Assembly (NCBI GenBank): GCA_041688005.1
Contig: JBDNJA010000183.1
Span: forward strand, 7,952-71,951
Direction: 5' to 3'
Length of the DNA: 64,000 nucleotides
Source: Gammaproteobacteria bacterium
GTDB taxonomy: Bacteria > Pseudomonadota > Gammaproteobacteria > GCA-001735895
In this document: positions 1,954-25,366 of the stretch, in pieces
Position numbering within the stretch: position 1 is the stretch's first letter
How the letters are laid out: each line of letters opens with the position of its first letter
The notes under the pieces: generated by a model
What the model saw: only the letters and a program-made list of their open reading frames with translations
Told to the model about the DNA's origin: nothing
Databases searched by the model: none
Program-made: the position numbers and the translations under genes

Positions 1954-1961
1954 TTTTAGTT

Positions 1962-4645: not shown

Positions 4646-4687
4646 TTAATACTCCTCGGTTTTGGTGATAAAGTTAAAAAAATATCG

Positions 4688-5611: not shown

Positions 5612-5620
5612 GATGTTCCG

Positions 5621-7194: not shown

Positions 7195-7982
7195 GAACTC
7201 ACCCCCAGATAGGCTTCCATCACCTTTGCATCATGAGTAACCTGATGAAAACTGCCTTCAATCAAATGCCGCCCCTGGGCCATTACTACGACGTGGTGGC
7301 ATAGTGCTTTGACCAGTTCCATATCGTGCTCGACAATTAAAAAAGTCTTGCCGGTTTCCTGGTTCAGCTTTGCAATCGTTTCCATCAACAGGCCCATCAA
7401 GGATGGGTTCACTCCGGCTGCAGGTTCATCCAGAAGAATAAGATCAGGATTAATCATCAATGCTCTTGCCAGTTCAAGAAGCTTTTTTTGGCCACCAGAC
7501 AAATTTCCTGCATATTCATCACAAACATGTGTCAGTTTGACCATATCCAGAACTTCACGAGCGCGGGTGAGTATTTCCTGTTCCTGTAACCGAATAGCTG
7601 CAGGTCGAGTAAAAACAGGGATCAGCTTCTCTCCAATTTGGTTTTGCGCTGCCAGCATAATGTTTTCGAGAACTGTCATGCCTGACATCTCCCTCGATAA
7701 CTGAAAGGTGCGAATCATCCCCTTGCGTGCAATTTTATAAGGTTTCAACCTGGTAATGTCTTCTCCGAACAGTAACGCCTCGCCGTGGTCAGCACGGATA
7801 ACACCTGAAACCAAATTAAAAAGTGTCGATTTGCCTGCGCCATTTGGACCGATCAATCCAGTAATAGTACCGCGTTGTACCTTTAACGACATGTCATCGA
7901 CGGCAACTAACCCACCAAATGCTTTACTGAGACCACGGCACTCCAGTACTGAGTCCTTATCATCGGGCCAGGGCTGTGTAGT
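7191..7982 (-). CDS. ABC transporter ATP-binding protein (LivG-like)
   Basis: Walker A GPNGAGKST, signature LSGGQKK. Start reassigned to MTTQPWPDD, because the listed 314-aa ORF would overlap the tetR gene by about 90 bp. Confidence 0.75.
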   Translation of the reverse strand, partial: TTQPWPDDKDSVLECRGLSKAFGGLVAVDDMSLKVQRGTITGLIGPNGAGKSTLFNLVSGVIRADHGEALLFGEDITRLKPYKIARKGMIRTFQLSREMSGMTVLENIMLAAQNQIGEKLIPVFTRPAAIRLQEQEILTRAREVLDMVKLTHVCDEYAGNLSGGQKKLLELARALMINPDLILLDEPAAGVNPSLMGLLMETIAKLNQETGKTFLIVEHDMELVKALCHHVVVMAQGRHLIEGSFHQVTHDAKVMEAYLGVSS

Positions 7983-8046
7983 CATACGCGGGGGCCCTTT
8001 GAAAAAGCAATTCGTCGCCATAAAAACAAAATAAAGTTGAGCACTA

Positions 8047-8676
8047 TCATGCTGCCAGCGTGGATTGTTGCTGAATAAGAATTGATATCGCTTTCTTCCA
8101 GTCCAGAAGTGACTGATTTGTAATGGCTGGGTCACGGGAATAGATCGATTGCACGGCCAGTCCCCGTAAAAAAGACAGCGTCATATTGAGAAGACTGCGG
8201 GAATCTTCCTGGCTCATCCCGGTCGCAGTAAAAATCTTGCCTCCTATCTTTTCGTAGCTGTCAAATAATTGCTGCGCTCGTTTTACTAAAGGATCGTGCA
8301 AAGCAGGATCACCTCGGCTAGCAATAACCATTTCGAGTGAAGAAAATATATTACGATTATTGAAGATGCGGTGCCACATTTCATCCACAACCTCGGTGAC
8401 ATTCAACTGACCATTTTTTGATGATTCGGCAATATTCCTGAGATCTTCTTCAATCTGGCTCCAGATTTGATCGACGACATCCAGTAGGAGATCATTTTTG
8501 CCTTGATAATGGTGGTTCAAGGCGCCTCGGGTCAAGCCGGCTCGTCGGGAAATCTCGGTCAGCGTTGTATGTCCATAGCCTATCGTAGACAGGCACTCCA
8601 AGGCAGCACTACGAAGACGCTGACGGGTGTCACTGCTTCTTTGCGACTGCATGCGACGTGCGATTTGCACCGCCAT
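8047..8676 (-). CDS. TetR family transcriptional regulator
   Basis: N-terminal HTH (...GYGHTTLTEISRRAGLTRGALNHHYQGKNDLL) typical of TetR/AcrR regulators. Confidence 0.8.
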   Translation of the reverse strand: MAVQIARRMQSQRSSDTRQRLRSAALECLSTIGYGHTTLTEISRRAGLTRGALNHHYQGKNDLLLDVVDQIWSQIEEDLRNIAESSKNGQLNVTEVVDEMWHRIFNNRNIFSSLEMVIASRGDPALHDPLVKRAQQLFDSYEKIGGKIFTATGMSQEDSRSLLNMTLSFLRGLAVQSIYSRDPAITNQSLLDWKKAISILIQQQSTLAA

Positions 8677-8718
8677 TTACGTCTCCTGATCCATATCTTA
8701 GATCTCCATGGTTAATTT

Positions 8719-8744
8719 ACATACATACATGGATGTATGTATGT
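8719..8744. promoter_or_regulatory. Perfect 12-bp inverted repeat ACATACATACAT-gg-ATGTATGTATGT; candidate TetR operator
   Basis: Read directly; lies 43 bp upstream of the tetR start, in the divergent region. Confidence 0.5.
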
Positions 8745-9427
8745 TTTATCATAACTTGAAGGTAATTGCAAAATTCTGGAGACGAGCAAATATATTAGCT
8801 AAACAACACCAATAAAAAAGAGTGACTGGCCCACTCACTGGTTAAAATGAGGAGCGAAAAAAACAATCACTCGGGCCGGATTTTAATGAATCAGACACGC
8901 ACCGAAGCGTGCCTACTAAGACTAAGTCAACAATAAAGGACAGGCTCTCAATGTTCTGTCAACGCTTAACCATTACCATTACTGACAACCGTCCATGACT
9001 CGGGGTTCTGGCGGCTTGCTAGACCTTACCTGATAAAGGACTTTCACCTTCAATCTTCTGCCGATTTATCTCGGCGAACTGTCTGTCCCTTTTTTTACTC
9101 TTTATCCTACTATCATTAAAGCAGTGTGATTTTAGATAGGACAATGGTGCGTTAGTAGTTTGAATTATAGTGAAGCAATGCGGGGCGAATCTTCATAAGC
9201 TTCGGGTTGTAGCACTCAATGGGTGATGGACTTGTGTGGTGCAAACCATTATGCAGGAAAATACACACCATGTTTATCGCCTAATGTATCACTTCGCAAA
9301 GCGTGTTATAAGTAACATTCTTATCGTTCAAAAAAGACCAGAAATAGAAGGGGGAGAGAAATCCAAGATTCCCGTGAACCCCTGAAAAGAAGCGGTAATG
9401 TGATTATTTAATCTAAGGAGAAAGGAG

Positions 9428-9853
9428 ATGCAAGACAATCACAATAACGCAGGTGTGATTCGGGTAATGTTAGCTAAGATCGGTCTAGATGGTCATGATC
9501 GAGGCATAAAAGTTGTCGCACGTGCGTTACGGGATGCTGGCATGGACGTGGTCTATACTGGACTGCATCGCACGCCGGAGGAAGTCGTGGATGCCGCCAT
9601 CCAGGAAGATGTAGATATCCTTGGGGTCAGCCTGCTTTCGGGTGCCCACATGCACATTTTTCCTAAAGTACTGGAACTTCTGAAAGCGAGGGAAGCGGAA
9701 GACATGATCGTTGCGGGTGGCGGTGTCATCCCTGACGACGATGTTAAAGAACTGTATCAGATGGGCGTCCAGAAAATTCTTCTCCAGGACACTCCTCCTC
9801 AGGAAATTATTGATTCCTTCCGGCAATTGGTTGCAGACCGTGGTGCGCGATAA
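9428..9853 (+). CDS. Acyl-CoA mutase small subunit, cobalamin (B12)-binding domain protein
   Basis: 141 aa with the DxHxxG B12-binding motif (LDGHDRGIKVV); strong RBS aaggagaaaggag upstream. Confidence 0.8.
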   Translation: MQDNHNNAGVIRVMLAKIGLDGHDRGIKVVARALRDAGMDVVYTGLHRTPEEVVDAAIQEDVDILGVSLLSGAHMHIFPKVLELLKAREAEDMIVAGGGVIPDDDVKELYQMGVQKILLQDTPPQEIIDSFRQLVADRGAR

Positions 9854-9927
9854 GTACGACTACATGGGAAGTCGAGTGTACATGACAGATTTCCTTAGAC
9901 GATAATTAATAATATCAGGAGTCTCCG

Positions 9928-11349
9928 ATGAAAGAGTGGATTTTCCCCCCTACTTACAACAACGACTACTATCCTGAACCGAGTAGCCCCTACTGGTTTC
10001 GGGACCGAGAAACGATGGATCCGGACAAGCGTGATGAGCTAATTGTTGCACGCATCCGGGACGTCATGGCCTATGCTTACGATCACTCACCATTTTACCA
10101 ACGCAAATGGGACGAGGCCGGTATAAAGGCCAATCATATCCGTACTCTTGCTGACTTCGAGCAGGTTCCTGTCGTCACGAAGCAGGAACTGCGTGATTCC
10201 CAGGCGAAAACCCCACCCTTCGGGGACTACCTTTGCTGTCTGGAAAGCGATATACATCATATCCATGGTACTTCCGGCACAACCGGTCGGCCTACCACCT
10301 TCGGTATTTCTCGGAGCGACTGGGACACCATTGCCAATAACCATGCTCGGATTATGTGGGGGATGGGTCTAAGGCCCGGAGATACTGTGTTTGTGGCTGC
10401 CATTCTTAGCCTCTATATGGGGTCCTGGGGTGCTTTGATAGGGGCCGAGAGACTAGGCTGCAAGGCCTTTCCTTTCGGCGCCGGCGCTCCAGGAATGACT
10501 GTGCGAGCAGTGACCTGGCTGGGAATGATGAAACCTGCAGGACTTTACTCCACTCCCTCCTACGCGCTTAGGCTGGCGGAAGTGGCCCGTGCGGAAGGGA
10601 TTGATCCCAAGGAGTTCGGCATCAAGGTGTTATTCTTCTCAGGTGAGCCGGGCGGGTCCATTCCGTCCATACGGGACAAGATTCAGGATATCTACGGTGC
10701 CAAGGTGATTGACTGCGGAACCATGGCTGAGCTGACGCCGTGGATGCACGCTTCCGGAAGCGCCGACACCGAAGGCATGCTGCTGTGGCAGGACATTGTC
10801 TACACCGAAGTAGCGGACCCCGTCACTCATCGACGCGTTCCCTACGGAGAACAAGGAACACCCATTTATACCCACCTCGAACGTACCTCTCAGCCAATGA
10901 TCCGCATGTTTTCCGGCGACCTAACCCATTGGGTGATGGAAGATAACCCCTGCGGCCGCACTTACCCGAGACTTCCAAAAGGCATTTACGGGCGGATCGA
11001 CGACATGTTCCAGATTCGGGGTGAAAACGTCTATCCCAGCGCCATTGCTGAAATTCTGGAAGGCCTGGCCGGTTATGGCGGCGAACACCGAATCATCATT
11101 TCACGTGAGGGCTCAATGGATGAGTTGGCCGTGCAGGCAGAATTTGACCAGCAGACCGCTAGCAAGGGTCCGGATGCAGTCAAGGCCTTCTCAGAACGAG
11201 CGCAGGCTGAGCTGAGACGAGTGCTGGGTGTACGGGCACGGGTTATCATGGTCGAGCCAGACACCTTTCTACGCACGGACTTCAAGGCCCAGCGAGTGGT
11301 TGACGACCGAAATCTTTACCACAGTTTTGACCAGGAACAAGGGGGTTAA
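9928..11349 (+). CDS. Phenylacetate-CoA ligase (PaaK) family adenylate-forming enzyme; candidate 2-hydroxyisobutyrate-CoA ligase
   Basis: 473 aa, PaaK-family size and motifs (GTSGTTGRPT). Position between the mutase subunits mirrors the hcl gene of characterised hcm clusters; that functional link is from the literature. Confidence 0.6.
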   Translation: MKEWIFPPTYNNDYYPEPSSPYWFRDRETMDPDKRDELIVARIRDVMAYAYDHSPFYQRKWDEAGIKANHIRTLADFEQVPVVTKQELRDSQAKTPPFGDYLCCLESDIHHIHGTSGTTGRPTTFGISRSDWDTIANNHARIMWGMGLRPGDTVFVAAILSLYMGSWGALIGAERLGCKAFPFGAGAPGMTVRAVTWLGMMKPAGLYSTPSYALRLAEVARAEGIDPKEFGIKVLFFSGEPGGSIPSIRDKIQDIYGAKVIDCGTMAELTPWMHASGSADTEGMLLWQDIVYTEVADPVTHRRVPYGEQGTPIYTHLERTSQPMIRMFSGDLTHWVMEDNPCGRTYPRLPKGIYGRIDDMFQIRGENVYPSAIAEILEGLAGYGGEHRIIISREGSMDELAVQAEFDQQTASKGPDAVKAFSERAQAELRRVLGVRARVIMVEPDTFLRTDFKAQRVVDDRNLYHSFDQEQGG

Positions 11350-12321
11350 ATGATTAACCGTATACCCTCAATGACTCTGGCTGATAGAGTTCTAAAAGGG
11401 CATATCCGCGCCATTGCTAGGCTTATTACCCGGGTTGAAAGTGGCGACCCGGAAGTGCGACAGGCCCTAGCCAAATTATATAAAAGCACCGGCCGAGCCC
11501 ACGTGGTGGGTATTACCGGTGTGCCGGGGGCAGGAAAGTCGACCCTCGTTGCACAGCTGGTCCATGAATACCGAGCAAGTGGCCGCACGGTGGGTATCGT
11601 TGCCATTGATCCCTCAAGTCCCTTTTCTGGTGGTGCAATCCTCGGTGATCGTATACGTATGGGCGATCTGGTTTCTGACCCGGGAGTTTTCATCCGAAGT
11701 ATGGCCACCCGGGGAACTTTGGGCGGCCTGGCTAGGCCAGCCTTGGATGCAGTCGACCTCCTGGATGCAGGAGGGTTCGACGTGGTTCTGATCGAGACGG
11801 TCGGGGTGGGTCAGGATGAAGTCGATATCGTGCGTGCGGCTCACACCACAGTGGTTGTCAACGCACCTGGTCTGGGCGACGACATTCAGGCCATAAAAGC
11901 AGGTATCTTGGAGATTGCCGATGTGCATGTGGTGAGCAAAGCGGATCGGCCAGATTCCAACAAAACCATACAGGAACTCAAGGGCATGCTGACGATGAGT
12001 CTTGAACCGGGTGAGGGAATCTGGCGAGTGCCGGTGGTGCCAACCAGTTCAGAAAACCACACAGGTTTCGGCGAGTTGATGGCTGCGATTGATCACCACG
12101 CAGAACACTTGGAACGAAGTGGTGAAATCACCGAACGGCGACGCCAGATTACGTTAACCCGGGTGGTGAAAGTTGCCGAAGAAATCGTCCGGGACAATTT
12201 TGTACGTGACAGCAGGTCGCAAACCGAAGAACTGCTTAAAAAGGTGACTCAACGCGAACTGGATCCCCATGGGGCCGCGGTGACCTTGCTAAAAACTATG
12301 AAGGAGACGATTCATGAATGA
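11350..12321 (+). CDS. MeaB/ArgK-type G-protein chaperone of B12-dependent mutases
   Basis: 323 aa, P-loop GVPGAGKST, MeaB-like; 1-bp gap from the ligase gene and 8-bp overlap with the large subunit. Confidence 0.85.
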   Translation: MINRIPSMTLADRVLKGHIRAIARLITRVESGDPEVRQALAKLYKSTGRAHVVGITGVPGAGKSTLVAQLVHEYRASGRTVGIVAIDPSSPFSGGAILGDRIRMGDLVSDPGVFIRSMATRGTLGGLARPALDAVDLLDAGGFDVVLIETVGVGQDEVDIVRAAHTTVVVNAPGLGDDIQAIKAGILEIADVHVVSKADRPDSNKTIQELKGMLTMSLEPGEGIWRVPVVPTSSENHTGFGELMAAIDHHAEHLERSGEITERRRQITLTRVVKVAEEIVRDNFVRDSRSQTEELLKKVTQRELDPHGAAVTLLKTMKETIHE

Positions 12322-14008
12322 CACTGACCAGTATGACCCCGCTGCACTCAAGCACATTGAAAAAGAGTTTGACCAGTGGGAAAAAAACGAAGTTTCATCC
12401 TTTGTAAAACGGACGCCAGAGAGCCAGTCAGAGTATACCACTGCTTCCGGTATGCCGACGAAACGCACGTATACACCACTGGATATCAAAGACACTGCGT
12501 TCAAGGATGTTGGCCTTCCTGGGCAATATCCATTCACCCGGGGACCATACCCCACCATGTACCGGGGCCGAAACTGGACAATGCGCCAAATCGCCGGCTT
12601 CGGTACGGCCAAGGAAACCAACGGGCGTTTCAAGTATCTGATCGCTCAAGGTCAGACTGGCCTGTCGATAGATTTCGACATGCCCACGTTGATGGGATAT
12701 GACTCTAGTCATACCATGTGCCAGGGAGAGGTAGGCCGCGAAGGAGTTGCCATCGACACCCTGGCTGATATGGAGGAATTGTTCGATAACATTGATCTGA
12801 CGAAAATTTCAGTTTCCATGACCATCAATCCGTCAGCATGGATACTCTACGCCATGTACATTGCTCTGGCGCAGAGTCGCGATTATGACCTTAATGACCT
12901 GTCAGGTACCATCCAGAATGACATTCTTAAGGAGTACATTGCCCAGAAGGAATGGATATTCCCGGTGCGTCCCTCGGTTCGCCTAGTCCGTGACTGTATT
13001 CAGTACGGCTCTAAGCACATGAAACGGTATAATGCTATCAATATTTCCGGCTACCACATATCGGAAGCCGGCTCGACCGCTGTGCAGGAGGTGGCATACA
13101 CCATGGCCAACGCCATGGTGTATGTCCGGACAGCAATCGACGCAGGGGTGGATGTCAATGAATTCGGCCCCCGCCTCTCGTTCTTCTTTGTAAGCCAGGC
13201 AGATTTCTTTGAGGAAATTGCCAAGTTCCGTGCGGCCAGGCGGGTATACGCTAAGATCATGCGCGAAAAATTCGGTGCCACAAAACCCGAGGCCAGCCGG
13301 TTGCGCTTCCACGCACAAACCGCGGCAGCGACCCTGACCAAACCACAGTATACAATCAACCCGATTCGCACCGCGCTCCAGGCGTTGTCCGCCGTGTTGG
13401 GTGGGGCGCAGTCGCTACATACCAACGGCATGGATGAGGCTTTTGCCATTCCCACTGAGGAGGCCATGCGGATAGCCCTCCGCACACAGCAAATCATCGC
13501 TTACGAGACCAATATCACACAGGTTGTGGACCCTTTGGGCGGTTCCTACTATGTTGAAAGTCTAACCAACGAGATTGAGCAGGAAGTCTGGAAAATTCTC
13601 AACGAGGTTGAAGAGCTTGGTGGTACCTTGCAGTGTATCGACGATGGTTACTTTCAGAGAGGCATCTCTGATTCCGCTTACGATTTCGCGTTACGCAAGG
13701 CCAGCGGAGAAAGGCCTGTTATCGGCGTGAATATGTTCGTGCAGGAGGAAGATGTCAAAATTGAAACGCATCCCCACGACCCGGAAACAGAGAGCCGGCA
13801 GATTGAACGCCTGAGAAGGGTCAAGAATGGTCGCGATGAGAAAAAAGTTCAGACCATGCTCGGGCAGCTGAAAGAACAGGCTGAAGACGAATCAGTAAAC
13901 CTCATGCCGATCACCATTGAGTTGGTGAAAGAGGGGGCGTCGATGGGCGACATTGTTGAAACGCTTAAAGGCATTTGGGGGACCTATCGTGAAAAACCTG
14001 TAATCTAA
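12314..14008 (+). CDS. Acyl-CoA mutase large (substrate-binding) subunit, with the HcmA-type specificity triad
   Basis: 564 aa mutase catalytic domain with no fused B12 domain. The key sites read RQ-I-AGFGTA, LS-I-D-FD and YIA-Q-KEW, i.e. Ile/Asp/Gln. MCM has Tyr/Ala/Arg and ICM has Phe/Ala/Gln at these sites. Confidence 0.6.
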   Translation: MNDTDQYDPAALKHIEKEFDQWEKNEVSSFVKRTPESQSEYTTASGMPTKRTYTPLDIKDTAFKDVGLPGQYPFTRGPYPTMYRGRNWTMRQIAGFGTAKETNGRFKYLIAQGQTGLSIDFDMPTLMGYDSSHTMCQGEVGREGVAIDTLADMEELFDNIDLTKISVSMTINPSAWILYAMYIALAQSRDYDLNDLSGTIQNDILKEYIAQKEWIFPVRPSVRLVRDCIQYGSKHMKRYNAINISGYHISEAGSTAVQEVAYTMANAMVYVRTAIDAGVDVNEFGPRLSFFFVSQADFFEEIAKFRAARRVYAKIMREKFGATKPEASRLRFHAQTAAATLTKPQYTINPIRTALQALSAVLGGAQSLHTNGMDEAFAIPTEEAMRIALRTQQIIAYETNITQVVDPLGGSYYVESLTNEIEQEVWKILNEVEELGGTLQCIDDGYFQRGISDSAYDFALRKASGERPVIGVNMFVQEEDVKIETHPHDPETESRQIERLRRVKNGRDEKKVQTMLGQLKEQAEDESVNLMPITIELVKEGASMGDIVETLKGIWGTYREKPVI

Positions 14009-14048
14009 TCGCCTTTTTACTGACTAAAGCGGGTCACTACAGGGACAA

Positions 14049-14153
14049 ATGGTTAGACTCACCAAGATATATATCAAAACCGGAGATAAAGGCGATACCG
14101 GCCTGGGCGATGGTAGCCGGGTCGTGAAGTACGACCTGATGCCCGGACTGTGA
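14049..14153 (+). pseudogene. Truncated PduO-type ATP:cob(I)alamin adenosyltransferase remnant (first ~34 codons only)
   Basis: MVRLTKIYIKTGDKGDTGLGDGSRVVKYDLMPGL* closely matches the conserved N-terminus of PduO/MMAB-type ATR (MVKLSKIYTRTGDKGETGLGDGSRVSKDD...). Homology stops at a stop codon and no continuation appears in any frame. Confidence 0.55.
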
Positions 14154-14829
14154 CTCGCCGAGCTGGCCAGGCACTCGCTGGAGCCGTGCCGGCGCCCATA
14201 TTCCAAGGCTTAGCTCCATTATAAAGACGGAACTGTTCGGTACCTAGTCTGGGGGCACAGAATATGTGATTGGCCCTGAAACTAGAGTAAACGTCTCGGC
14301 AATCACACCTAGGAAGAAATTCACTGCAGCCTAAACTGACAGTCCAGTTATTCATTGTGGTTTTAAAGTGAATGAAAATACGCCAACGTCGAAGTCCGGC
14401 AGAATGGCGAGTATTGTTAAACGCGCAATTGAGATAGTCAGTTATGTGTAGTCGACTTTTCTCGTTTGCAAAGCCTGGATACCAAGTACTTTAGTAAACG
14501 TAAACGCGCATTTGAAGCCGATGAAATAACGCCACCTCAAAATAGCGTCGTCAAACTTGGCCGTGGTTTCTCGCTAGCAGCCATCTGTGCCTATTTTTGT
14601 CTGTAAATTGACGCATTGCTAAGCTATGAGCCAGACAACAATAAGGGTCATGAATTACCGATACTGAGGTGACAGTAGCGCACCTTTAAAGCAGGTAATA
14701 CTTTTTCTTTAGATGGTAAAGGGGTTGGGACGTCGATGGGACTGCGTACGCTTGCCTACAACTCGCGTTTCGGCGGAGGTAAGCGGCACAGCAGCGCAGG
14801 AGCACTCGCGCCTGGCACGCAATGTCTCT

Positions 14830-15726
14830 TCAGCTGGCATCTACGCCAGCTGCCTCAAAAAGCCATTCTCGGAAGGCTTTGACTTTTTTGCTCTGCCGCT
14901 CGCTGGCCCGGCAAGAGACAAAATGGGTCTCCTCGGCCAGAGGCAAAAACTGCTCCGGCCCCAGCTCGACCAGTTCGCCGCGCAACAGTTCGCGCTCGGC
15001 CAAGCGGAGGCTTTCCAGCGTCACCCCCATGCCGTCAGCCGCCGCCGAGATGGACAGGGCCGCGCGGTCAAACGAGGGGCGGGGTCGCGCTGGCAGTGTC
15101 AACCCGTTCAGCGCAAACCACTGGGGCCAGGTCACGCCGCTGAGTTGAGAGTCGATCAGCATCAGCTCGAGAATTTGCTGGGTAACTGGTTGGTCTGCCT
15201 TGAGCAGAACCGGAGAACACAGTGGCGCGATGCGTTCCGTGCCCAGCGCCACCGCAACCACACCGGCACGTTTTTGCACCGCCCCATAAGAAATCGCAAT
15301 GTCTACCTCTTGCACCCGGGTCAGGTCTATCAGTTCGGCACCGGAAGTCAGGCGCAGGGTGATGTCCGGGTGGGTCTGCATAAACACGGACAAGCGCGGG
15401 CTCAGCCATTTGGCGGCGAAACTGGGTGAGCAATGTAGCGCCAGTACCTGCGCTTGCGGTGCCAGAGCCACCTCGTCACAGGCCGCCTCGATGACGTCAA
15501 ACACGCGGGACAGGCTCTCGCACAGGCGCCGGCCCTGGGCAGTTAGCTCGACGCGGCGGTTGCCACGGGTAAACAGGGGCAAGGAAAAATACGTTTCCAG
15601 AGCTCGCACCTGGTGGCTGATGGCCGACTGGGTCAGATGCAGCTCCTGTCCGGCTAGGGTGAAACTTTCGAGGCGGGCGGCAGACTCAAATGCTCGCAGC
15701 AAGGCAAAGCTTGGCATGTGCCTCAT
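14830..15726 (-). CDS. LysR family transcriptional regulator
   Basis: N-terminal HTH (SFTLAGQELHLTQSAISHQVRALE); about 62-65% GC, far above the flanks. Confidence 0.8.
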   Translation of the reverse strand: MRHMPSFALLRAFESAARLESFTLAGQELHLTQSAISHQVRALETYFSLPLFTRGNRRVELTAQGRRLCESLSRVFDVIEAACDEVALAPQAQVLALHCSPSFAAKWLSPRLSVFMQTHPDITLRLTSGAELIDLTRVQEVDIAISYGAVQKRAGVVAVALGTERIAPLCSPVLLKADQPVTQQILELMLIDSQLSGVTWPQWFALNGLTLPARPRPSFDRAALSISAAADGMGVTLESLRLAERELLRGELVELGPEQFLPLAEETHFVSCRASERQSKKVKAFREWLFEAAGVDAS

Positions 15727-15842
15727 GTTGTTGGCCTATTCATGAATAGAATTCATTTTTTCATGAATATTCATCGCTTGTCAACGCATTCAAAGCGCGC
15801 ACTATATAATCCTCTGTTCAAACTCAGTCCGAAGGTGGGAAA
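15727..15842. promoter_or_regulatory. Divergent promoter region with TTCATGAATAGAATTCA and TGAATATTCA palindromic LysR-type boxes
   Basis: Overlapping TGAAT..ATTCA inverted repeats read directly between the LysR gene and the aldolase gene. Confidence 0.45.
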
Positions 15843-16703
15843 ATGTCATCCGTATTGGAAACCAGTCTAAAAACCGACAACAGCAACACCATTGATCTGG
15901 GCAAAGACCCGGTGTCTATTTATCAGCCAGAAGACCCGACGCTGATTTTTCCGAATCTTCCCAAGTTTTCCAGTTCGGCCGAAGAGCGTCGGCATCTGAA
16001 AGAACGGCTGGTGGCGTCGTGCCGCGCCTTTGCCCTGCAAAATTTTGACTATGGCTTCGCCGGCCATCTGACGGTGCGCGACCCGGAAAACCCGAGCCTG
16101 TATTGGACCAATCCAATGGCTGTGCATTTCTCGCAGGTCAAGGTATCCAACCTAATTCTAGCCGATCACAGCGGCAAGGTGGTGCAGGGCAAGCACGCCA
16201 TCAACCGTGCTGGATTTGTCTTGCACTCGGCCGTGCATGAGGCACACCCCGACATTGTGGCCATGTGCCACGCCCACACGGTGTACGGCACGGCGTTTGC
16301 GGCATTAGGAAAAAAGCTGGAGCCGATTACGCAGGATGCCTGCGCCTTTTTTGAAGACCATGTGGTCATTGGTGACGACGCCGGCCAGGTCACGGTGGAA
16401 GTCAAGGCCGGACACAAAGTCGCCCAGGCCTTCAAGGGCGTCAAAGCCGCGATTCATCAGAACCACGGCCTGCTCACAGGAAGCCGCCACAGCATTGAGT
16501 CTGCAGCGTTCTGGTTCATCGCGCTGGAACGTTGCTGTCAGCAACAGTTGTTAGTCGAAGCGAGCGGTGTGACACCTCGCTTGGTGTCGCCGGACCGAGC
16601 GCGTTACAGTCGCAAGCATGTGGGTAGCGACTACATCGGCTGGCTGCACTTTCAGTCGATCTGGGAGCAGCTGGTCGAAACCCAGCCGGACATGTTTGAC
16701 TAA
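15843..16703 (+). CDS. Class II aldolase/adducin family protein
   Basis: 286 aa; metal-binding His cluster (CHAHTVYG) typical of the class II aldolase/adducin fold; GC-rich. Confidence 0.7.
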   Translation: MSSVLETSLKTDNSNTIDLGKDPVSIYQPEDPTLIFPNLPKFSSSAEERRHLKERLVASCRAFALQNFDYGFAGHLTVRDPENPSLYWTNPMAVHFSQVKVSNLILADHSGKVVQGKHAINRAGFVLHSAVHEAHPDIVAMCHAHTVYGTAFAALGKKLEPITQDACAFFEDHVVIGDDAGQVTVEVKAGHKVAQAFKGVKAAIHQNHGLLTGSRHSIESAAFWFIALERCCQQQLLVEASGVTPRLVSPDRARYSRKHVGSDYIGWLHFQSIWEQLVETQPDMFD

Positions 16704-16764
16704 GAGAGTTGGGGCGATACCGATGTACTTTTTTCACCACTGCGAGCGAAACGTATGCTGTGAT

Positions 16765-17868
16765 TCAGGTCATGCCAACTGGACTAAAAAACCAATCAAG
16801 TAATTTTTGTTGAACGTCACTAACATGTGAAAAAGCCCAATGAGGGTTTTTGTCTTTATCTACTAATAACGCCCTGACACCTTCGCAAGTTTCAGAATAC
16901 TGACAACAACGAAGGGTTAAGTTTAACTCTGATGCAAAACATTCGCTTAAACTAAGACCTTTAGTCACTTGTAGTTGTTGATATATAATGCAAGCACTAA
17001 GAGGGCTACCCGCCATCAATTTGTTTTTTGCCTGCGCCAGCCATTTATTTTCTGTTTTGAGACTTAGGATAGCGGTGTGTATGTCAACGATATTATCGAA
17101 AGCCAGTAACTTTGCTATATCCGCTTTATTTGCTCTTAATTCAGAATGTAAATAATGTGTGAAATTGTTTGAAAATTTTAACAATAATCGATCTAGTAAT
17201 TCATAATTGCTATCATTTTTTTGCCACTCTATTTCCTGTAAAGACTTATAAATTAAATTTTTTGTTGAACTGTCAATAATATAATGCGTCAGGCCAATAT
17301 ATTTTGCATCTTCAGCATTAAAAAAAGCACCTGTGATCCCTAAAAAAAGCCCCATATCATCTGGCATTTTATTTAAAAACCAACTCGCGCCCACATCAGG
17401 GTATAATCCAATGGATACTTCGGGCATGGCCATCAAAGTGCGTTCGGTTGTGACTCGATGACTGGCACCTGCAAATAAACCTATTCCGCCTCCCATGATA
17501 TAGCCATCACCCCATACCATAATGGGTTTCTTAAATTTATGAATCAATTGATCAAGTCGGTATTCTTGGCTAAAAAACTCATGAGCGAAACCTGTTTTAA
17601 TTATATGGTCATCTATTAAGGCTGGTAGATCATTAAGATAGTGATAAAGGCTAACAACATCACCCCCTGCGCAAAATGCTTTCTCACTTATACTTTGCAT
17701 AACAACGAGAGCTATACTGTCATCTTGTTCCCAACAAGTCAGTTGCCGTATTAAAAGCTTAATCATCGAAAGATTTAATGCATTAAGAGACTTAGGAGCA
17801 TTAAGTTCTGCTATCCCTATTTTTTTATTATTCTTACTGCTTAACTCTTTAAATATCACTTCACTCAT
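16765..17868 (-). CDS. Enoyl-CoA hydratase/isomerase family protein, 3-hydroxyisobutyryl-CoA hydrolase-like (ECH_2)
   Basis: 367 aa; crotonase fold with the HIBCH-like architecture (AFCAGGDV, GGGIGL); about 33% GC. Confidence 0.65.
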   Translation of the reverse strand: MSEVIFKELSSKNNKKIGIAELNAPKSLNALNLSMIKLLIRQLTCWEQDDSIALVVMQSISEKAFCAGGDVVSLYHYLNDLPALIDDHIIKTGFAHEFFSQEYRLDQLIHKFKKPIMVWGDGYIMGGGIGLFAGASHRVTTERTLMAMPEVSIGLYPDVGASWFLNKMPDDMGLFLGITGAFFNAEDAKYIGLTHYIIDSSTKNLIYKSLQEIEWQKNDSNYELLDRLLLKFSNNFTHYLHSELRANKADIAKLLAFDNIVDIHTAILSLKTENKWLAQAKNKLMAGSPLSACIIYQQLQVTKGLSLSECFASELNLTLRCCQYSETCEGVRALLVDKDKNPHWAFSHVSDVQQKLLDWFFSPVGMT

Positions 17869-17982
17869 TCAGTTCAGCTCCCATTATTTCGCTATTTAAT
17901 AAGCTATTATAACGTTACATTAACATGGCTCTGCACTAACTTACTGTTCCACAGGTTCATGTTATGAGCCACCTTCAACTTA

Positions 17983-18270
17983 TAATACTTCCCTATCTAT
18001 TGTGGGCATGATAGCGGCTACTGGACCCAAAAACATCACCGTTATGAATGTACCAAATGCCATCAGCAGACATCCGCCACCGCTGGCACACTGTTTCACG
18101 GCACTAAGCTCCCATTAACCAAGTGGTTCTGGACTGTGTACTTGATCGGTTCCGATAAAAGCGGCATATCTGCATTACGACTATCAAAATTCATCTTGAT
18201 TAGCACTATTGTTCAGCTAACGTTTGTGAAGGGTAAAACTGATCGGGAAATGGGCCCATCGATATAACCA
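17983..18270 (+). mobile_element. IS1595-family (ISXO2-like) transposase N-terminal remnant, with no intact ORF
   Basis: Translation ...IYCGHDSGYWTQNITRYECTKCHQQTSATAGTLFHGTKLPLTKWFWTVYLIGSDKSGISALRLSKF... matches the IS1595 N-terminal zinc-ribbon/HTH region (CxxC...SGTIFHxTKLPLxKWFxAIYLMxxxKKGISALQL); it ends in a stop and no DDE domain follows. Confidence 0.55.
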
Positions 18271-18682
18271 TGGATACAATACTGGGTGTTTCACTGGTTT
18301 TGTGTGGAATCGGTGTTCAGCTTCGCAGGAATACGCACCAGGTATAGCTGCCCGCGAACGCTCGAGCGTTCTCATTATTGGTTGGTTATTGCGAGTCAGG
18401 CAGACTTTTTCAGGGTTCGTGGCTTTTTAGAAAATTGTGAGGCGTAAAGCTTTTCACAATTTAAGAGTGCCTATTCTTGAAACACCCTCTTCTTTATTTT
18501 CATGCGGCGCGGCGCAATACGCTTCACTATCCCCCTACGATGGCGGATGGGCGTGTTTGGTGTGAGGGTAGAGATTTGTGATCAGGTCTTTTCAAGTCTC
18601 ATCAATAATATTGGAATTCGATGTAGAAAGATCTACCCCGTTTTCCCCTGGGCTCTCGATTAGATGTGGTCGGTGCCACACA

Positions 18683-19108
18683 CTACCATACACTTTCTAC
18701 CGATGGATCATCATAACGCTCTAGTTTAGCCAACCATTCAGGCATACCTTTCTTAATAGTAAGCTCCAATTCATTTATTTCCTCAGTACCTACTAATTCT
18801 TTTTCATGCATAAACGTATAGAATTTTTTAAGTGAAACTGCATTGTTCTTAATTGATGATTGACTTGCCCACATTGCTTTTTTAATAAACCAATAACCAA
18901 GAAACATACTAACTTCATTGGCACCATCTTGTGCCTCAGTTGCATCCTCGTAAAGTAAATAGTCGTTGATATAAAAATCGATATTCGAAATATGCTTCTC
19001 AATTACTTTTTTTGATAAATTTGATGCATCAAGCCACGTTCCAAATCCATTTAGTAGGATGCCATTTTCTTTCCTAATTTCATTACAATCTTCTTCGTAG
19101 TTATCCAT
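18683..19108 (-). CDS. hypothetical protein (AT-rich, acidic; no recognisable family)
   Basis: 141 aa ORF with protein-like composition and about 33% GC; immediately downstream of the IS1595 remnant. Confidence 0.45.
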   Translation of the reverse strand: MDNYEEDCNEIRKENGILLNGFGTWLDASNLSKKVIEKHISNIDFYINDYLLYEDATEAQDGANEVSMFLGYWFIKKAMWASQSSIKNNAVSLKKFYTFMHEKELVGTEEINELELTIKKGMPEWLAKLERYDDPSVESVW

Positions 19109-19274
19109 TTATATCTCGTTTTTAAAATTTAATTTGCATCTAATACTTAGTACGACGGCGGAATAAACTGACCGATGTTTTTTGGTTTCTCTGCAAAAAG
19201 CACGACGCATTATGAAGTTCATTGGTGCTACTGGTTCTATTTAAAGACCCATCCCGTTTTTGCGCTAACCACCC

Positions 19275-19733
19275 TCACATTTTGTGAGCACCTATCATCA
19301 GGCGCTCGAATACCGAATACCGTTCCCCTATGCCGTCTTTTGTGGATTCGCGGTTCACGCTAATCCAGACTTCATCCGGAAATCCTGCTGCCAGATCGGC
19401 GGTATAAGCGCATTCGTCATCTGCTGCTTCACGTGCTGCTTTCGGCGATGGTGCACCAAGATCCTCGATAAAATGCCGGATGAGTTCTTTTTGGATACCC
19501 TCGTATTCGTGTGGCTCGATGTGGCAGACTTCTGCAATTGTGCAGCGGCCATACGACTCGACCGAAACAAACGAGGTGCCGCAGTGGCAGGGTGTACTTC
19601 GGTGGCCCGTGGCCAGATCACAGACTGCATAGCCGCCGGAAACCATCCATTCACCATCTTCGGCGGCACCGCCTTCCGCAGCGTAGATATGCGAGTCAGA
19701 GTCATCAAGCCGTACTGCTTTAAGGAATTTCAT
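19275..19733 (-). CDS. hypothetical Cys/His-rich protein
   Basis: 152 aa; the minus frame is protein-like (CHCGTSF...CTIAEVCH), whereas the overlapping plus ORF has an antisense-like composition; about 58% GC. Confidence 0.45.
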   Translation of the reverse strand: MKFLKAVRLDDSDSHIYAAEGGAAEDGEWMVSGGYAVCDLATGHRSTPCHCGTSFVSVESYGRCTIAEVCHIEPHEYEGIQKELIRHFIEDLGAPSPKAAREAADDECAYTADLAAGFPDEVWISVNRESTKDGIGERYSVFERLMIGAHKM

Positions 19734-20059
19734 GTGTAGGATGAAGAAGGAAAATGGCTGCTTATAATAGAACCTGCCCGTACCAAAGTATAGGGGGAGT
19801 CTTCCGGAAAACCAAAGGGGCGACCAATATCGATTGAAATCTACATTTAGTTAGATTCCCTTTTTTCATCTCATCCACATGCACTACTACCAAGGTGCAT
19901 GAGAAGTTTCTCGGACGGGACTTTAGCCCGCTAGCTTGATCGCCGATGACGGCGTGTGGGCGGCCCTTTGCTTCTTGCTCAGCCCAGAGGGGCTCCCTAC
20001 AGCACTCTGTACAAATAGATCTTGCCTTTAGCTTAACGCTACTATACTGTCCTCGCCGC

Positions 20060-20300
20060 AAAGGTGTCCACTCAGGTGGATTAAACGGGAAGTTGGTGCG
20101 AATGTTTTTCAGGTTCAATTCCGACGCTGCCCCCGCAACGGTAAACAGATAATGCAACATGAATACCACTGAGTTAATCCTCGGGAAGGTATGTTGTCAG
20201 ATTCAAATTGAATCAGTTTGTGAGCCCGGAGACCGGCCTTTGCGATAAGTGATATTACGGCGGGTTTTATCCAAGTTTAATGAAATCATTAACCTTTTCC
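20060..20300 (+). ncRNA. Cobalamin (AdoCbl) riboswitch in the btuB leader
   Basis: Conserved blocks present: GGGAAgttGGTGcGAAT ... GCTGCCCCCGCAACGGTAA ... aCCACTG (B12 box) ... GGGAAGG; these match the E. coli btuB leader element by element. It lies directly upstream of a TonB-dependent receptor. Confidence 0.8.
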
Positions 20301-20355
20301 GCTTCGGTATCTTGAATTTTTTATTTCATCGGTACGGGCGGTACCAGGGGTTATT

Positions 20356-22311
20356 ATGATCAAAACGCTCTCAAAAGTATTATTTCCTATTCTATTAGTC
20401 GGATCATCAGGATCGTTTGCAAACGAAGATGATGACGGTCTTTATATTGTTATTACCCCTTCTGGTATCGAACAACCCAGAGAGGCGGCGAACACTAGTA
20501 TTACAGTTATCGACCAGAAGACTATAGACGCATCTAATGCTACTTCTGTGTCTGAATTACTTCGTGGTCAGGCCGGTTTGCATGTCAGTGATATTTTTGG
20601 TGATGGCAGCCAGGCGACTGTCGACTTGCGTGGTTTTGGACCCGCAGCATCCCGTAATACGTTGGTATTGCTCGATGGTCGGCGACTGAATAATTCTGCC
20701 GACAGCGCCTCTCCTGATTTGTCATTAATCGACATAGATGATATCGCTCAGATCGAAATACTACAGGGTAGCGGTGGCGTTTTGTATGGTAACCAGGCCG
20801 TCGGCGGCGTGATTAATATCATCCGTAAAGAAATTCTCGAAGACTCGGCCAGTGCCAGTGTTCGAATGGGTAGTTATAATTCCACGCAGTTGAGTGTGTC
20901 GGGCAAGAAAGTATTGGGTCGCAATAGTATTTCGGCTTCGGTATCGGATCGTAATTCCGATGGCTTTCGCGATCACAACGAATCAGATAACCGTCGCGTA
21001 TCAGTTCGAGCGGAGCGCATCCAAAATGGTTATACGACCTATGTCGAGCTTGAATCTGTTGATGATGAAATCCAAACCCCCGGCGCATTGTTGCTAGCCG
21101 AGTTAAACGCGAATCGAACGCAATCACTTAGTTTTTATCGCAATGATTTCTTCGACACTAAAACCAAGATGTTACGACTGGGCATGGAAAAAAATATCGA
21201 TGATAGTCGAAGCTTTAGCTTTGATTTTTCAGCCCGAGATACCGACCGAGAATTTATCCAAACCTTTCGTCCCTTTGCCGGTAGCTTATCCACGCAGGAT
21301 CGCAAAACGCGAAACTTTTCCACCCGCTATCGTGTCGTTCCTCTTGAGGCTGGAAATCTTATCAACTATGTTGTCGGCTTCGATTACGAAGATACTGACT
21401 ATAAACTAGTCTCGTTGTTCGGGCCTCAGCCAATGGATCAGACCATTCAGGGTTTATTTGTATCGAGCCTATGGTCTGTTGGTGAACATAGCCAGATAGA
21501 TACCGGAATGCGTTATAGCAAGCAGCAGGCAGACAGTGCCGGTGTCAACTTTGATGATTCTGGTATCGTCGTAGCTAACCTGGGTTTCAGCCATCAAATC
21601 GATCAACTCAAGTTATTTGCCCGTGCGGATCAGAACTTTCGCTATGCCACGGTAGAGGAACACACCAATGTACCTTTTGGGTCAGCTCCTGGTCTGAAAA
21701 CCCAGCAAGGCCTATCCATCGAAATCGGTGCCGAACTCAATCGAGGCAATAGTCGCTATCGTGGTACTTTGTACCAAATCGACTTAGACGATGAAATTGC
21801 ATTCGATTCATCTGGTTTCAGCAATCTCAATCTCGACGCAACAAAGCGCAAAGGCATTATTCTCGAAGCATCCAATCAATGGTCAGAACAATTCGGTTCA
21901 CGCATTAGCCTGACCAGCCTCGATGCTGAAATCACCGACGGTAGCTTCAAAGGCAAAAATTTGCCTTTGGTTCCCGAACAAATCCTACGGGTTGATGGAT
22001 CATATCAGTACAACAGAGCGATCCAAATCGGTGTTGAATACATTGCAGTCAGTGATCAAACTCTCGGCGGTGACTTTGCCAACCAGCTTGAAAAGTTATC
22101 TTCCTATGAAGTTATCAATTCACACATCAGCTATCAGCAAAAAAACTGGAGCCTCGGGTTTCGTATTAATAATCTACTCGACAAAAAATACTCAGAGACA
22201 GGCAATCAATTTACCGAATTTCCTGCGCCAAACTTTACCGCAGTCAATCACGTATCATTGTTTCCATCACCGCAACGTAATTTTTGGTTAAACTTCAAAA
22301 TTAAGCTTTAA
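20356..22311 (+). CDS. btuB: TonB-dependent outer-membrane receptor, vitamin B12 transporter BtuB-like
   Basis: 651 aa with signal peptide, plug and beta-barrel; preceded by a cobalamin riboswitch and followed by btuFCD homologues. Confidence 0.75.
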   Translation: MIKTLSKVLFPILLVGSSGSFANEDDDGLYIVITPSGIEQPREAANTSITVIDQKTIDASNATSVSELLRGQAGLHVSDIFGDGSQATVDLRGFGPAASRNTLVLLDGRRLNNSADSASPDLSLIDIDDIAQIEILQGSGGVLYGNQAVGGVINIIRKEILEDSASASVRMGSYNSTQLSVSGKKVLGRNSISASVSDRNSDGFRDHNESDNRRVSVRAERIQNGYTTYVELESVDDEIQTPGALLLAELNANRTQSLSFYRNDFFDTKTKMLRLGMEKNIDDSRSFSFDFSARDTDREFIQTFRPFAGSLSTQDRKTRNFSTRYRVVPLEAGNLINYVVGFDYEDTDYKLVSLFGPQPMDQTIQGLFVSSLWSVGEHSQIDTGMRYSKQQADSAGVNFDDSGIVVANLGFSHQIDQLKLFARADQNFRYATVEEHTNVPFGSAPGLKTQQGLSIEIGAELNRGNSRYRGTLYQIDLDDEIAFDSSGFSNLNLDATKRKGIILEASNQWSEQFGSRISLTSLDAEITDGSFKGKNLPLVPEQILRVDGSYQYNRAIQIGVEYIAVSDQTLGGDFANQLEKLSSYEVINSHISYQQKNWSLGFRINNLLDKKYSETGNQFTEFPAPNFTAVNHVSLFPSPQRNFWLNFKIKL

Positions 22312-22361
22312 CCCAGACAAGGGCCCGTTAGCAGGGCCCTCGGCAATCCTGGAATAGGTAT

Positions 22362-23153
22362 ATGCATCGAAACCCAAAAAATTGGCTAGCTCGCTTAACC
22401 CTGTCTGGGTTGAGTCTGTTGCTGCTCGGGTTTTCGGCCGACGCCTCAATTAAGGGCATTATTTCGCTGGACCTGTGTACCGATTGGATGCTGTTGCGTT
22501 ATGCCGATCAGGCACAGGTTCGTGCCTTTTCCCCATTGCTGTATCGCTATCAAGCTGACTGGGTTCCGGATGGCTTACCGGTTCATGATGGTAGTCTTGA
22601 GCATATTCTGCAGCTTGAGCCGGATCTGCTGATCACCGGTGAATACAATGCAACTCTGTTAAGAAAGCGTTTGGTACAACTGGGTAAAAGGGTAGAGGTT
22701 CTGCCGTTACCTGAAAACTTGCCCGACATAAAAAATTACCAACGTGAGTTTTTGTCAATTATCCAGGCAAAAATAAAAATGGACTCCGTTGAACCTGAAG
22801 TTGAACTTCCGCGTAAACAAAAAAAACTGTTGCTACTGGGTGCAAATGGCATCGGGACCGGGCGTAATACTTTGGAAAACGATTTGCTGGTCAAAGCGGG
22901 TTGGGATAACTACATACAAGCCTCGGGTTATGTCAATTTAGATCTGGAAAAAATTGTTGCCAACCCACCGGATGCGATTTACTGGTCTGCACCAGCATCA
23001 AATTCGCTGGCTAATTTATTTGCAGGTCATCCTGCTATCCGTTCCATCACCAAAGACTCGAGATTATCTTCTGATGAGCATTGGCGCTGGCAATGTCCAG
23101 GACCCTGGAGTTTGGATTTAATCAAAGTATTGGCGGCATGGAAAAATACCTAA
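22362..23153 (+). CDS. Periplasmic binding protein, BtuF/FecB class (cobalamin/siderophore ABC substrate-binding protein)
   Basis: 263 aa with signal peptide; sits between btuB and the FecCD-type permease. Confidence 0.6.
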   Translation: MHRNPKNWLARLTLSGLSLLLLGFSADASIKGIISLDLCTDWMLLRYADQAQVRAFSPLLYRYQADWVPDGLPVHDGSLEHILQLEPDLLITGEYNATLLRKRLVQLGKRVEVLPLPENLPDIKNYQREFLSIIQAKIKMDSVEPEVELPRKQKKLLLLGANGIGTGRNTLENDLLVKAGWDNYIQASGYVNLDLEKIVANPPDAIYWSAPASNSLANLFAGHPAIRSITKDSRLSSDEHWRWQCPGPWSLDLIKVLAAWKNT

Positions 23154-25338: not shown

Positions 25339-25366
25339 CAGCTGTAAACAAACATGTTTTTACAGC
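25339..25366. terminator. 9-bp stem hairpin AGCTGTAAA-N10-TTTACAGCT at the 3' end of the attH-like gene
   Basis: Perfect inverted repeat read directly; no strong U-run. Confidence 0.3.

Follow-up and report, generated by a model that had tools for sequence, protein, structure and literature searches.

The 34-codon open reading frame (ORF) that follows the mutase genes in the window, by which we mean the whole 64-kb stretch of DNA analysed, is indeed the remnant of a gene, though one of an ordinary kind, and the mosaic island in which it lies shows here an unremarkable scar of recombination. It corresponds to the 5′ end of a gene for a PduO-type cob(I)alamin adenosyltransferase (ATR), and we consider it likely (probability about 0.7) that its truncation lies at the breakpoint where recombination ended a ~4.8-kb Marinobacter-like block on the right-hand side, within a mosaic stretch. 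The uncultured host, a gammaproteobacterium of ~46% GC, would then carry ~10 kb of mosaic DNA (about 9.3–19.8 kb), in which the Marinobacter-like block (nt 9298–14135) brings a complete 2-hydroxyisobutyrate-degradation operon and is followed on its right by 675 bp of other DNA, a LysR/aldolase block, a Colwellia-like ECH_2 gene and IS-element remnants. The illegitimate recombination or deletion that built this patchwork, and not a clean insertion of a module into a resident operon, would have truncated pduO. The features are listed in Table 1.

Table 1. Features of the mosaic stretch and of the adjoining cobalamin uptake locus (window coordinates).
Feature	Position (nt)	Strand	Evidence or remarks
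gntR remnant (GntR-family regulator of the hcm cluster)	9298–9396	+	BLASTn against L003; tBLASTn
hcmB, small B12-binding subunit, 141 aa, DGHDRG motif	9428–9853	+	PF02310, E = 4.6e-26; TIGR00640, 150 bits
hcl, 2-hydroxyisobutyrate-CoA ligase, 473 aa	9928–11349	+	best PDB match 6hdw, 687 bits
meaH, MeaB-type G-protein chaperone, 323 aa	11350–12321	+	PF03308, E = 4e-91; TIGR00750, 340 bits
hcmA, 2-hydroxyisobutyryl-CoA mutase large subunit, 564 aa	12314–14008	+	best PDB match 4r3u_A (HcmA), 862 bits
pduO′ stub, PduO-type ATR	14049–14153	+	homology over 14049–14135/8, then 4–5 unrelated codons and TGA
Spacer C, 675 bp, 48.7% GC	14136–14810	.	gene, RNA-family and repeat searches negative
LysR/aldolase block, separately acquired module	14811–16778	.	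92.6% nt identity to L087–L090; Pfam and NCBIfam matches
LysR (GcvA-like)	14830–15726	-
Class II aldolase	15843–16703	+
ECH_2 (3-hydroxyisobutyryl-CoA-hydrolase-like) gene	16765–17868	-	PF16113, E = 2.4e-103
IS1595-family transposase N-terminus, short remnant	17986–18264 (core 18103–18195)	+	NCBIfam NF033547 positions 2–32, E = 5.4e-5, far under the family cut-off
Cobalamin riboswitch	20045–20255	+	RF00174, 108.8 bits
btuB-btuFCD-like uptake genes, after the riboswitch	20356–24846		Pfam matches

Identity and Extent of the ATR Remnant

The stub begins 40 nt past the hcmA stop codon (nt 14006–14008) and its similarity to PduO-type ATRs is well above chance, as had been predicted. It matched the Pfam family Cob_adeno_trans (PF01923) over profile positions 1–24 of 171 (E = 5.5e-5, with a score of 23.7 bits that lies under the Pfam cut-off of 24) and TIGR00636 (PduO_Nterm) over positions 1–22 (E = 0.014; 15.1 bits, far under the cut-off of 108). 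Residues 2–30 matched the ATR structures 2zhy, 2g2d and 6wgs (E about 4e-5), and in tBLASTn searches residues 1–29 were identical to the syntenic ATR of Marinobacter metalliresistant at 27 of 29 positions (93%, E = 2e-12). What the stub retains is the N-terminal ATP-binding segment, the KIYTKTGDKGDTG-type stretch that it has in common with PduO-type ATRs (PF01923; PDB 2G2D/6WGS, 3CI1 and human MMAB 2IDX). These enzymes have a helical-bundle core whereas the stub, which does not contain the complete domain of ~170–190 residues, has none, and it is therefore a piece of a gene rather than an enzyme of this family.

The original prediction placed the end of the homology at the stop codon. The position of the stop was correct (TGA at nt 14151–14153) but the limit of homology was not, as it lies at codon 29/30 rather than 34; BLASTn against two independent DNA references put it at nt 14134 (L003, see below) and nt 14138 (L103). 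No continuation was found in any frame, in agreement with the prediction: tBLASTn of the 64-kb window with two full-length ATRs (E ≤ 10) returned the stub as the sole match, with nothing of residues ~30–185, and Pfam searches of essentially all window ORFs of at least 100 aa found no other ATR family.

It is extremely improbable that the ORF specifies a functional small protein, or is a leader or regulatory ORF under selection, even though it still opens with the start codon at the original distance from hcmA and retains the conserved ATP-loop motif of the N-terminus, and 7 of the 9 substitutions relative to Marinobacter fall at third codon positions. Such a bias is expected from an intact gene in the other lineage together with constraint before truncation; it shows past constraint and does not date the truncation. 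The helical-bundle core (residues ~29–175, with trimer and active site) is wholly missing, the structural core of ATRs beginning at about residue 29, from which ATR-derived designed scaffolds also align. Moreover, the tail past codon 30 is unrelated sequence and the next gene on the same strand is 1.7 kb away. We infer that the stub is dead and non-functional because only the ATP-loop segment preceding the core has been kept, and a peptide of 34 residues would not be expected to have adenosyltransferase activity. In annotations, the ORF should be described as a pduO pseudogene fragment and not as a gene.

The Mutase Operon

By its predicted products, the mutase operon is a 2-hydroxyisobutyryl-CoA mutase operon, hcmB-hcl-meaH-hcmA, complete for the degradation of 2-hydroxyisobutyrate. 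The HcmAB/HCL/MeaH system of Aquincola tertiaricarbonis L108 (PDB 4R3U and 6HDW) provided by far the best structure matches of the window HcmA and Hcl: methylmalonyl-CoA mutase and IcmF scored only 438 and 262 bits against HcmA, and phenylacetate-CoA ligases 230 bits against Hcl, the best match of which is a 2-hydroxyisobutyryl-CoA synthetase. HcmB forms a small B12-binding subunit of its own, in which the DxHxxG motif is present, and the gene order is common to 20+ loci. At the aligned motif positions HcmA is the same as 4R3U, and carries MRQIAGFGT and SIDFDMPT. Kurteva-Yaneva et al. reportedly described, in 2015, the Ile of the RQ-I-AGF motif and the Asp of the S-x-D-FD motif as the substrate determinants of HcmA. 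All of the hcm genes are intact, with dN/dS values against Marinobacter of 0.03–0.05 (hcmB 0.03), and what would be annotated as a neighbouring 'methylmalonyl-CoA mutase' is better named as a 2-hydroxyisobutyryl-CoA mutase with its ligase and chaperone.

The published A. tertiaricarbonis L108 cluster consists of hcmA, hcmB, hcl and meaH with an upstream GntR gene (PMC7176365), and the window locus has the same predicted content, although its GntR gene has been destroyed. A second difference concerns the ATR, since the canonical cluster (gntR, hcmAB, hcl and meaH) is described without one (PMC7176365) while the source lineage of the window block had one. Among 40 HcmA-type loci having downstream sequence, an ATR gene adjoins hcmA (≤2 kb) in only four, and in none does it lie elsewhere in the locus. 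An hcm operon does not, therefore, normally end with an ATR gene, contrary to the expectation that had been voiced for this one. The loci closest to that of the window do have the gene: at exactly the same site, a full ATR of 185–189 aa is present in M. metalliresistant CuT 6 (NZ_CP101118.1; L003), in a Marinobacter-like metagenome contig (OJBO01000064.1; L103) and in an Arhodomonas locus (L001), as the proposed comparison of syntenic loci was meant to reveal.

Origin of the hcm Block

L003 (gntR-hcmB-hcl-meaH-hcmA-pduO) and L103 have a gene order identical to that of the window, proteins that are 90–95% identical to its proteins (HcmB 95% and HcmA 93% for L003) and a matching hcmA-to-ATR spacing (40 versus 42 nt). 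Collinear DNA of 82–84% identity extends over nt 9298/9354–14135/8; BLASTn aligned nt 9357–14134 to L003 nt 7030–11826 (84%) and nt 9354–14138 to L103 (81.6%). In both references gntR (244 aa) and pduO (185 aa) are complete whereas both are truncated in the window, and the window block is flanked by unrelated DNA.

The left end of the block mirrors the right. No intact GntR regulator gene accompanies the operon, and all that survives is a 3′ remnant of ~100 bp in two collinear pieces, nt 9298–9355 (codons ~175–193) and nt 9357–9396 (codons 227–244), which are set apart by an internal deletion of 102 bp; the first ~174 codons are gone. The first piece aligns with L003 nt 6871–6927 (79%, E = 1.7e-9), the second, within nt 9357–9422, with L003 nt 7030–7095 (83%), and tBLASTn showed 13 of 14 residues to be identical over GntR residues 227–240. 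On these comparisons the hcm block is a horizontally acquired fragment that was cut inside genes at both ends (gntR on the left, pduO on the right). The original prediction, that a resident mutase operon had been hit, was mistaken on this point, as the operon itself is the acquired block. The cuts may predate the arrival of the fragment, or a deletion may have made them afterwards.

It is composition and discordant identities that suggest the direction of transfer. Third-position GC is 0.49–0.60 in the hcm genes and 0.41–0.50 in host genes, and while HcmA is 93% identical to that of Marinobacter, the window BtuB shares only 24–32% identity with the BtuB of the Marinobacter-like contig. The latter value also rules out a joint transfer of the btu genes with hcm, an idea prompted by L103, in which a cobD-like aminotransferase gene, a cobalamin riboswitch and btuB come after pduO. 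Because dS between the hcm genes and those of Marinobacter is 0.7–1.0, the transfer would be old or from an unsampled lineage. Scans of GTDB genomes and JGI metagenomes for carriers of the block gave closest HcmA matches of 92–93%, and neither these scans nor the BtuB-based relatives yielded a close relative of the host with or without it. For evolutionary studies, the locus is a clean case of a catabolic operon moved among marine gammaproteobacteria and cut inside both of its flanking genes.

The LysR/Aldolase Block and Its Neighbours

The steps in base composition that first drew attention to the region are real. The GC content is 62.0% in the LysR gene and 56.4% in the aldolase gene, compared to about 46–47% in the surrounding genome, and falls to 36.0% in the ECH_2 gene; the LysR/aldolase pair is supported as foreign by its composition and phylogeny. 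Besides the match to metagenome contigs L087–L090 along its whole length, parts of the block (nt 14813–15085 and 15651–16703) are 89–93% identical to contigs L098–L102, and its left end (nt 14811–14813) agrees between these two independent contig sets, the flanks of which differ. The module is present in three or more genomic contexts, and its end on the LysR side is identical in them. No transposase lies inside it, and an IS5-like transposase adjoins it solely in the unrelated contigs L087 and L088.

The original prediction had this module inserted at the point of truncation, so that a resident operon with an intact ATR gene would have lost codons ~31–185 by the insertion, possibly together with a deletion. 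A truncated ATR gene with a foreign, high-GC module downstream is what such an event would leave, and a version in which insertion was followed by loss of the distal part of the gene is formally conceivable, but we regard this course of events as unlikely. By both contig comparisons, 675 bp of unrelated DNA separate the start of the module from the ATR breakpoint. The 64-kb window contains no distal ATR fragment, either past the module or at any other place, and the position where the gene should resume is occupied instead by the Colwellia-like ECH_2 block. Repeat searches found neither terminal inverted repeats nor a target-site duplication at nt 14811 and 16778, and the hcm operon itself is a block cut at both ends.

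The ECH_2 gene is, by its alignments, a third, Colwellia-like block (nt 16781–17888, 77.7% nucleotide identity to Colwellia hornerae, L097), fused inside the last codons; comparison of C-termini indicates that its last ~4 codons and stop derive from the LysR/aldolase block.

The DNA between the stub and the LysR gene, put at about 500 bp in the original prediction, measures 676 bp of non-coding sequence (nt 14154–14829). The spacer (nt 14136–14810) gave no matches with its open stretches against Pfam and NCBIfam, against Rfam (E ≤ 1), in BLAST searches of plasmids and phages, in BLASTn and tBLASTx comparisons with the flanking DNA of all loci of donor-like or host-relative type, or in repeat searches, and an exhaustive phmmer search with its 129-aa open stretch returned 0 matches among 1.8 billion representatives.

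Cobalamin Supply

Six kilobases downstream of the hcm operon lie a cobalamin riboswitch and btuB-FCD, and the btu locus is kept in host relatives from nt 19799 onward. These relatives, found via BtuB, have only the btu operon in common with the window, their upstream genes being different. Given the intact hcm genes and this uptake locus, the mutase is most likely served by an ATR from elsewhere: the BtuB-FCD system, under riboswitch control, would import cobalamin, and an ATR plausibly encoded outside the 64-kb window would adenosylate it, supplying AdoCbl to the mutase. An Hcm with its MeaB chaperone is functional in Escherichia coli, and a co-expressed ATR was not reported (PMC11599936). 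We infer that the mutase still works, and the organism probably degrades 2-hydroxyisobutyrate with imported cobalamin. With gntR and the upstream promoter lost, the operon would now have to use a new promoter; as both the cluster regulator and the linked ATR are gone, the 2-hydroxyisobutyrate pathway would depend on functions encoded in trans. None of these findings challenges current understanding.

Junctions and Mosaic Structure

An assembly or binning chimera, in which a mixed sample led to artefactual joins between the DNA of several organisms at the junctions, could produce sharp GC shifts between blocks with differing nearest relatives, and Logan contigs do break at nt 9047–9070, 12210/13343 and 18374–18394. 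All five junctions (nt 9298, 14135, 14811, 16778 and 17888), however, fall within contigs that were obtained in independent assemblies of runs SRR9199119/20 and are 100% identical to the window, although the two runs may share a culture or sample, and no junction has a repeated sequence that might have led to a wrong join. Such an artefact is very improbable. Exact-protein look-ups returned contigs from these two runs alone.

Searches for repeats, att sites and target duplications found none at any junction, and the region as a whole matched no known plasmid. A hitherto unrecognised gene-capture or cassette-like recombination mechanism may be imagined to act at the site, perhaps in connection with orf141, which weakly resembles an integrase N-terminus, and with the remnants of an intron and of IS elements; we consider this quite improbable, the alternative being ordinary sequential illegitimate recombination and deletion. 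As an integrase remnant, orf141 was rejected, since it gave weak NCBIfam matches only (E = 7e-4) and no PHROG match, and its single-sequence AlphaFold model (pLDDT 52) was too poor for a fold search.

The hcm fragment sits in a hotspot that gathers pieces of several lineages. From the TetR/ABC operon to the btu locus there are at least four such pieces, namely the Marinobacter-like hcm block, the 60%-GC LysR/aldolase module, the Colwellia-like ECH_2 gene and the DNA of the spacer. They measure 0.7–4.8 kb, differ in lineage and meet one another at the ends of genes or just inside them, without detectable repeats.

The adenosyltransferase remnant and the hcm operon

Forty nucleotides after the stop codon of the gene for the 564-aa mutase large subunit lies a short ORF with the translated product MVRLTKIYIKTGDKGDTGLGDGSRVVKYDLMPGL, which corresponds to the start of a PduO-type cob(I)alamin adenosyltransferase (ATR). 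The Pfam profile Cob_adeno_trans matched it over the first 24 of 171 positions (E 5.5e-5; 23.7 bits, slightly below the cut-off of 24 bits), TIGR00636 (PduO_Nterm) over the first 22 positions, and the PduO-type ATR structures 2zhy, 2g2d and 6wgs over residues 2–30 (E about 4e-5). The 185-aa ATR that occupies this position in Marinobacter metalliresistant matched the window (tBLASTn) over residues 1–29, with 27 identities (E 2e-12), and two full-length ATRs gave no other credible match in any reading frame across the 64 kb. These four matches, together with the lack of a second tBLASTn match, show that the stub is genuine and not a chance similarity, and bear out the original prediction of a truncated ATR gene that has no continuation in any frame. 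In protein alignments, identity extends through codon 29/30 and is followed by unrelated sequence. As engineered trimer scaffolds derived from ATR proteins align from residue ~29, and only the segment N-terminal to the helical-bundle core is retained, the stub cannot be an enzyme; it is confirmed as an ordinary gene remnant.

The preceding operon (hcmB-hcl-meaH-hcmA) includes a 141-aa B12-binding subunit and a MeaB-type chaperone. The mutase large subunit scored 862 bits to the HcmA structure 4R3U compared with 438 bits to methylmalonyl-CoA mutases, and the 473-aa 'phenylacetate-CoA-ligase-like' protein scored 687 bits to 2-hydroxyisobutyrate-CoA ligase (6HDW) compared with about 230 bits to phenylacetate-CoA ligases; these best matches rule out a generic methylmalonyl-CoA mutase system. 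The gene content agrees with that of the published 2-hydroxyisobutyrate degradation cluster, which comprises hcl, hcmAB and meaH, in most cases preceded by a gene for a GntR regulator, and has no ATR among its members (PMC7176365). Compared with Marinobacter, the four hcm genes show dN/dS values of 0.03–0.05 (dS 0.7–1.0); they are intact, and their evolution has been constrained.

The expectation of an ATR gene at the operon's end proved to be a weak premise. Of 40 HcmA-type loci compared (identity of at least 60%, with at least 700 nt of downstream sequence), only four carry an ATR within 2 kb of hcmA (Marinobacter, a Marinobacter-like contig, Arhodomonas and Bosea), and no ATR lies in any other part of the 40 loci. 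On the Marinobacter-like metagenome contig OJBO01000064.1 (L103, nt 7741–11562), pduO comes next after hcmA, and then a gene for a cobD-like aminotransferase, a cobalamin riboswitch (99 bits) and btuB. Given the three elements that come after it, this ATR may belong as much to the cobalamin locus as to hcm, and in the L103 lineage it bridges the two. For Hcm of the window, the BtuB-FCD system 6 kb downstream, which is under riboswitch control, would import cobalamin, and an ATR encoded outside the window would adenosylate it; we infer that the hcm operon could still be used in this way. The 64 kb contain no other ATR family member. In E. coli, an Hcm works together with its MeaB chaperone, and co-expression of an ATR is not reported (PMC11599936).

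Limits and origin of the hcm block

Among the genomes scanned, one per species, the closest locus was that of M. metalliresistant CuT 6 (L003; HcmA 93% identical), with the order gntR-hcmB-hcl-meaH-hcmA and then, 42 nt after hcmA, a complete ATR gene where the window has the stub. Window nt 9357–14134 form a single collinear match to L003 nt 7030–11826 (BLASTn, 84% identity), and the second, independent reference, L103 (HcmA 92%), matches nt 9354–14138 at 81.6% and also carries the full ATR. From the gntR remnant on the left and the end of ATR homology on the right, the Marinobacter-like block is placed at nt 9298–14135, cut within the flanking genes at both ends. A 102-bp internal deletion separates the two gntR pieces, and the first ~174 codons of gntR are wholly absent. 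Losing gntR together with the promoter in front of it, a point absent from the original prediction, is probably a greater regulatory lesion than the ATR truncation.

The GC3 of the hcm block is 0.49–0.60 compared with 0.41–0.50 for host-type genes of the window (btuB, lldD, mdh, acs, TetR); that of the Marinobacter orthologues is 0.57–0.70. Relatives of the window BtuB on long contigs reach at most 73% identity (Aestuariibacter, 59%), and BtuB of the Marinobacter-like contig only 24–32%, against 93% for HcmA to Marinobacter. Either the true source of hcm has yet to be sampled, or the transfer took place long ago.

A mosaic of imported pieces

The composition steps noted originally are real: GC content is 62.0% in the LysR gene, 56.4% in the aldolase gene and 36.0% in the ECH_2 gene, compared with about 46–47% in the rest of the window. 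The foreign character of the LysR/aldolase pair was likewise upheld. A relative of the aldolase is 97% identical, and its contigs (L087–L090) match nt 14811–16778 at 92.6% nucleotide identity with sharp ends on both sides; remoter relatives are from Burkholderiales. The pair forms a distinct module. In L087–L090 it is followed after the aldolase by dctPQM TRAP-transporter genes and has an IS5-like transposase beside LysR, while contigs L098–L102 (organisms of ~60% GC) match nt 14813–15085 and 15651–16703, with LysR internally deleted, the same LysR-side end and again different flanks. The module recurs, at 89–93% nucleotide identity and with this common end, in three or more unrelated genomic contexts. 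Its left end and the ATR breakpoint are 675 bp apart, and in the spacer between them (nt 14136–14810; 48.7% GC) neither a homologue nor an RNA family nor a repeat could be detected.

To the right, nt 16781–17888 match Colwellia hornerae at 77.7% nucleotide identity, the last ~4 codons and stop of the ECH_2 gene being supplied by the LysR/aldolase block. The Colwellia gene lies in a cluster (araC / icmF-like fused mutase - ADH - ECH - SDR), whereas the window keeps the ECH gene alone. Two pieces from B12-mutase neighbourhoods (hcm and ECH_2) thus lie 3 kb apart, possibly by coincidence.

The blocks are joined tightly at gene ends. Separately assembled contigs from runs SRR9199119 and SRR9199120 cover nt 956–9070, 9047–12210, 13343–18394 and 18374–29861 at 100% identity and contain all five block junctions, at which no repeats able to cause mis-joins were found. 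At least four sources contributed pieces to this patchwork region. Of the rearrangement first proposed, the truncation of the ATR gene and the foreign module stand; insertion of that module into a resident operon is not supported, since the hcm operon is also imported, as a fragment with cuts at both ends, the module lies 675 bp away and no distal ATR piece is present. The stub is most simply explained as the breakpoint left by illegitimate recombination or a deletion, which would have occurred either on arrival of the hcm fragment or in later turnover of the hotspot. The locus adds a further case of what is already known, an hcm operon that moved horizontally and whose flanking genes became pseudogenes, here in a mosaic island.

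Flanking and other elements

Features of the region and of the wider window (window positions)
Feature	Position	Strand	Details
Group II intron D1-D4 fragment	8943–9044	-	RF02005, 66.7 bits; 125-position internal deletion
gntR remnant	9298–9355 and 9357–9396	+	gntR codons ~175–193 and 227–244
pduO stub ORF	14049–14153	+	ATG start, 34 codons, TGA at 14151–14153
ECH_2 hydrolase gene	16765–17868	-	Colwellia-like, 73% aa; third block
IS1595-family transposase N-terminus remnant, short	17986–18264	+	NF033547 positions 2–32, E 5.4e-5
141-aa ORF, 33% GC	18683–19108	-	Weak XerA/XerD-type tyrosine recombinase N-terminal similarity, E 7e-4 and 6e-3
DUF6505 gene			Right of ECH_2 block
Cobalamin riboswitch	20045–20255	+	RF00174, 108.8 bits
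TonB-dependent receptor and BtuF/C/D-like ABC genes (btuB-btuFCD)	20356–24846		Directly downstream of riboswitch
IS30-family transposase ORF	59780–60535	+	NF033563, 184 bits; 251 aa, possibly truncated

Homology to a host relative (L091, 90% identical) begins only at nt 19799, just upstream of the cobalamin riboswitch. From this point on, host relatives share the B12 uptake locus, which in the window lies 6 kb from the B12-dependent mutase, and everything upstream of the point differs among them. The read assemblies branch at nt 18374–18394, near the IS1595 remnant. The 141-aa ORF had no match in Pfam and PHROG searches, and its AlphaFold model (single-sequence) is all-helical and of low confidence (pLDDT 52).

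On the left, the group II intron fragment sits between a TetR-family gene and what is left of gntR; breaks in the independent read assemblies at nt 9047–9070 suggest that it is a multi-copy element. The TetR-family gene (nt 8047–8676, minus strand) heads a Liv-type ABC transporter operon, and 43 nt upstream of it is a 26-nt palindrome, ACATACATACATGGATGTATGTATGT (nt 8719–8744), a possible operator.
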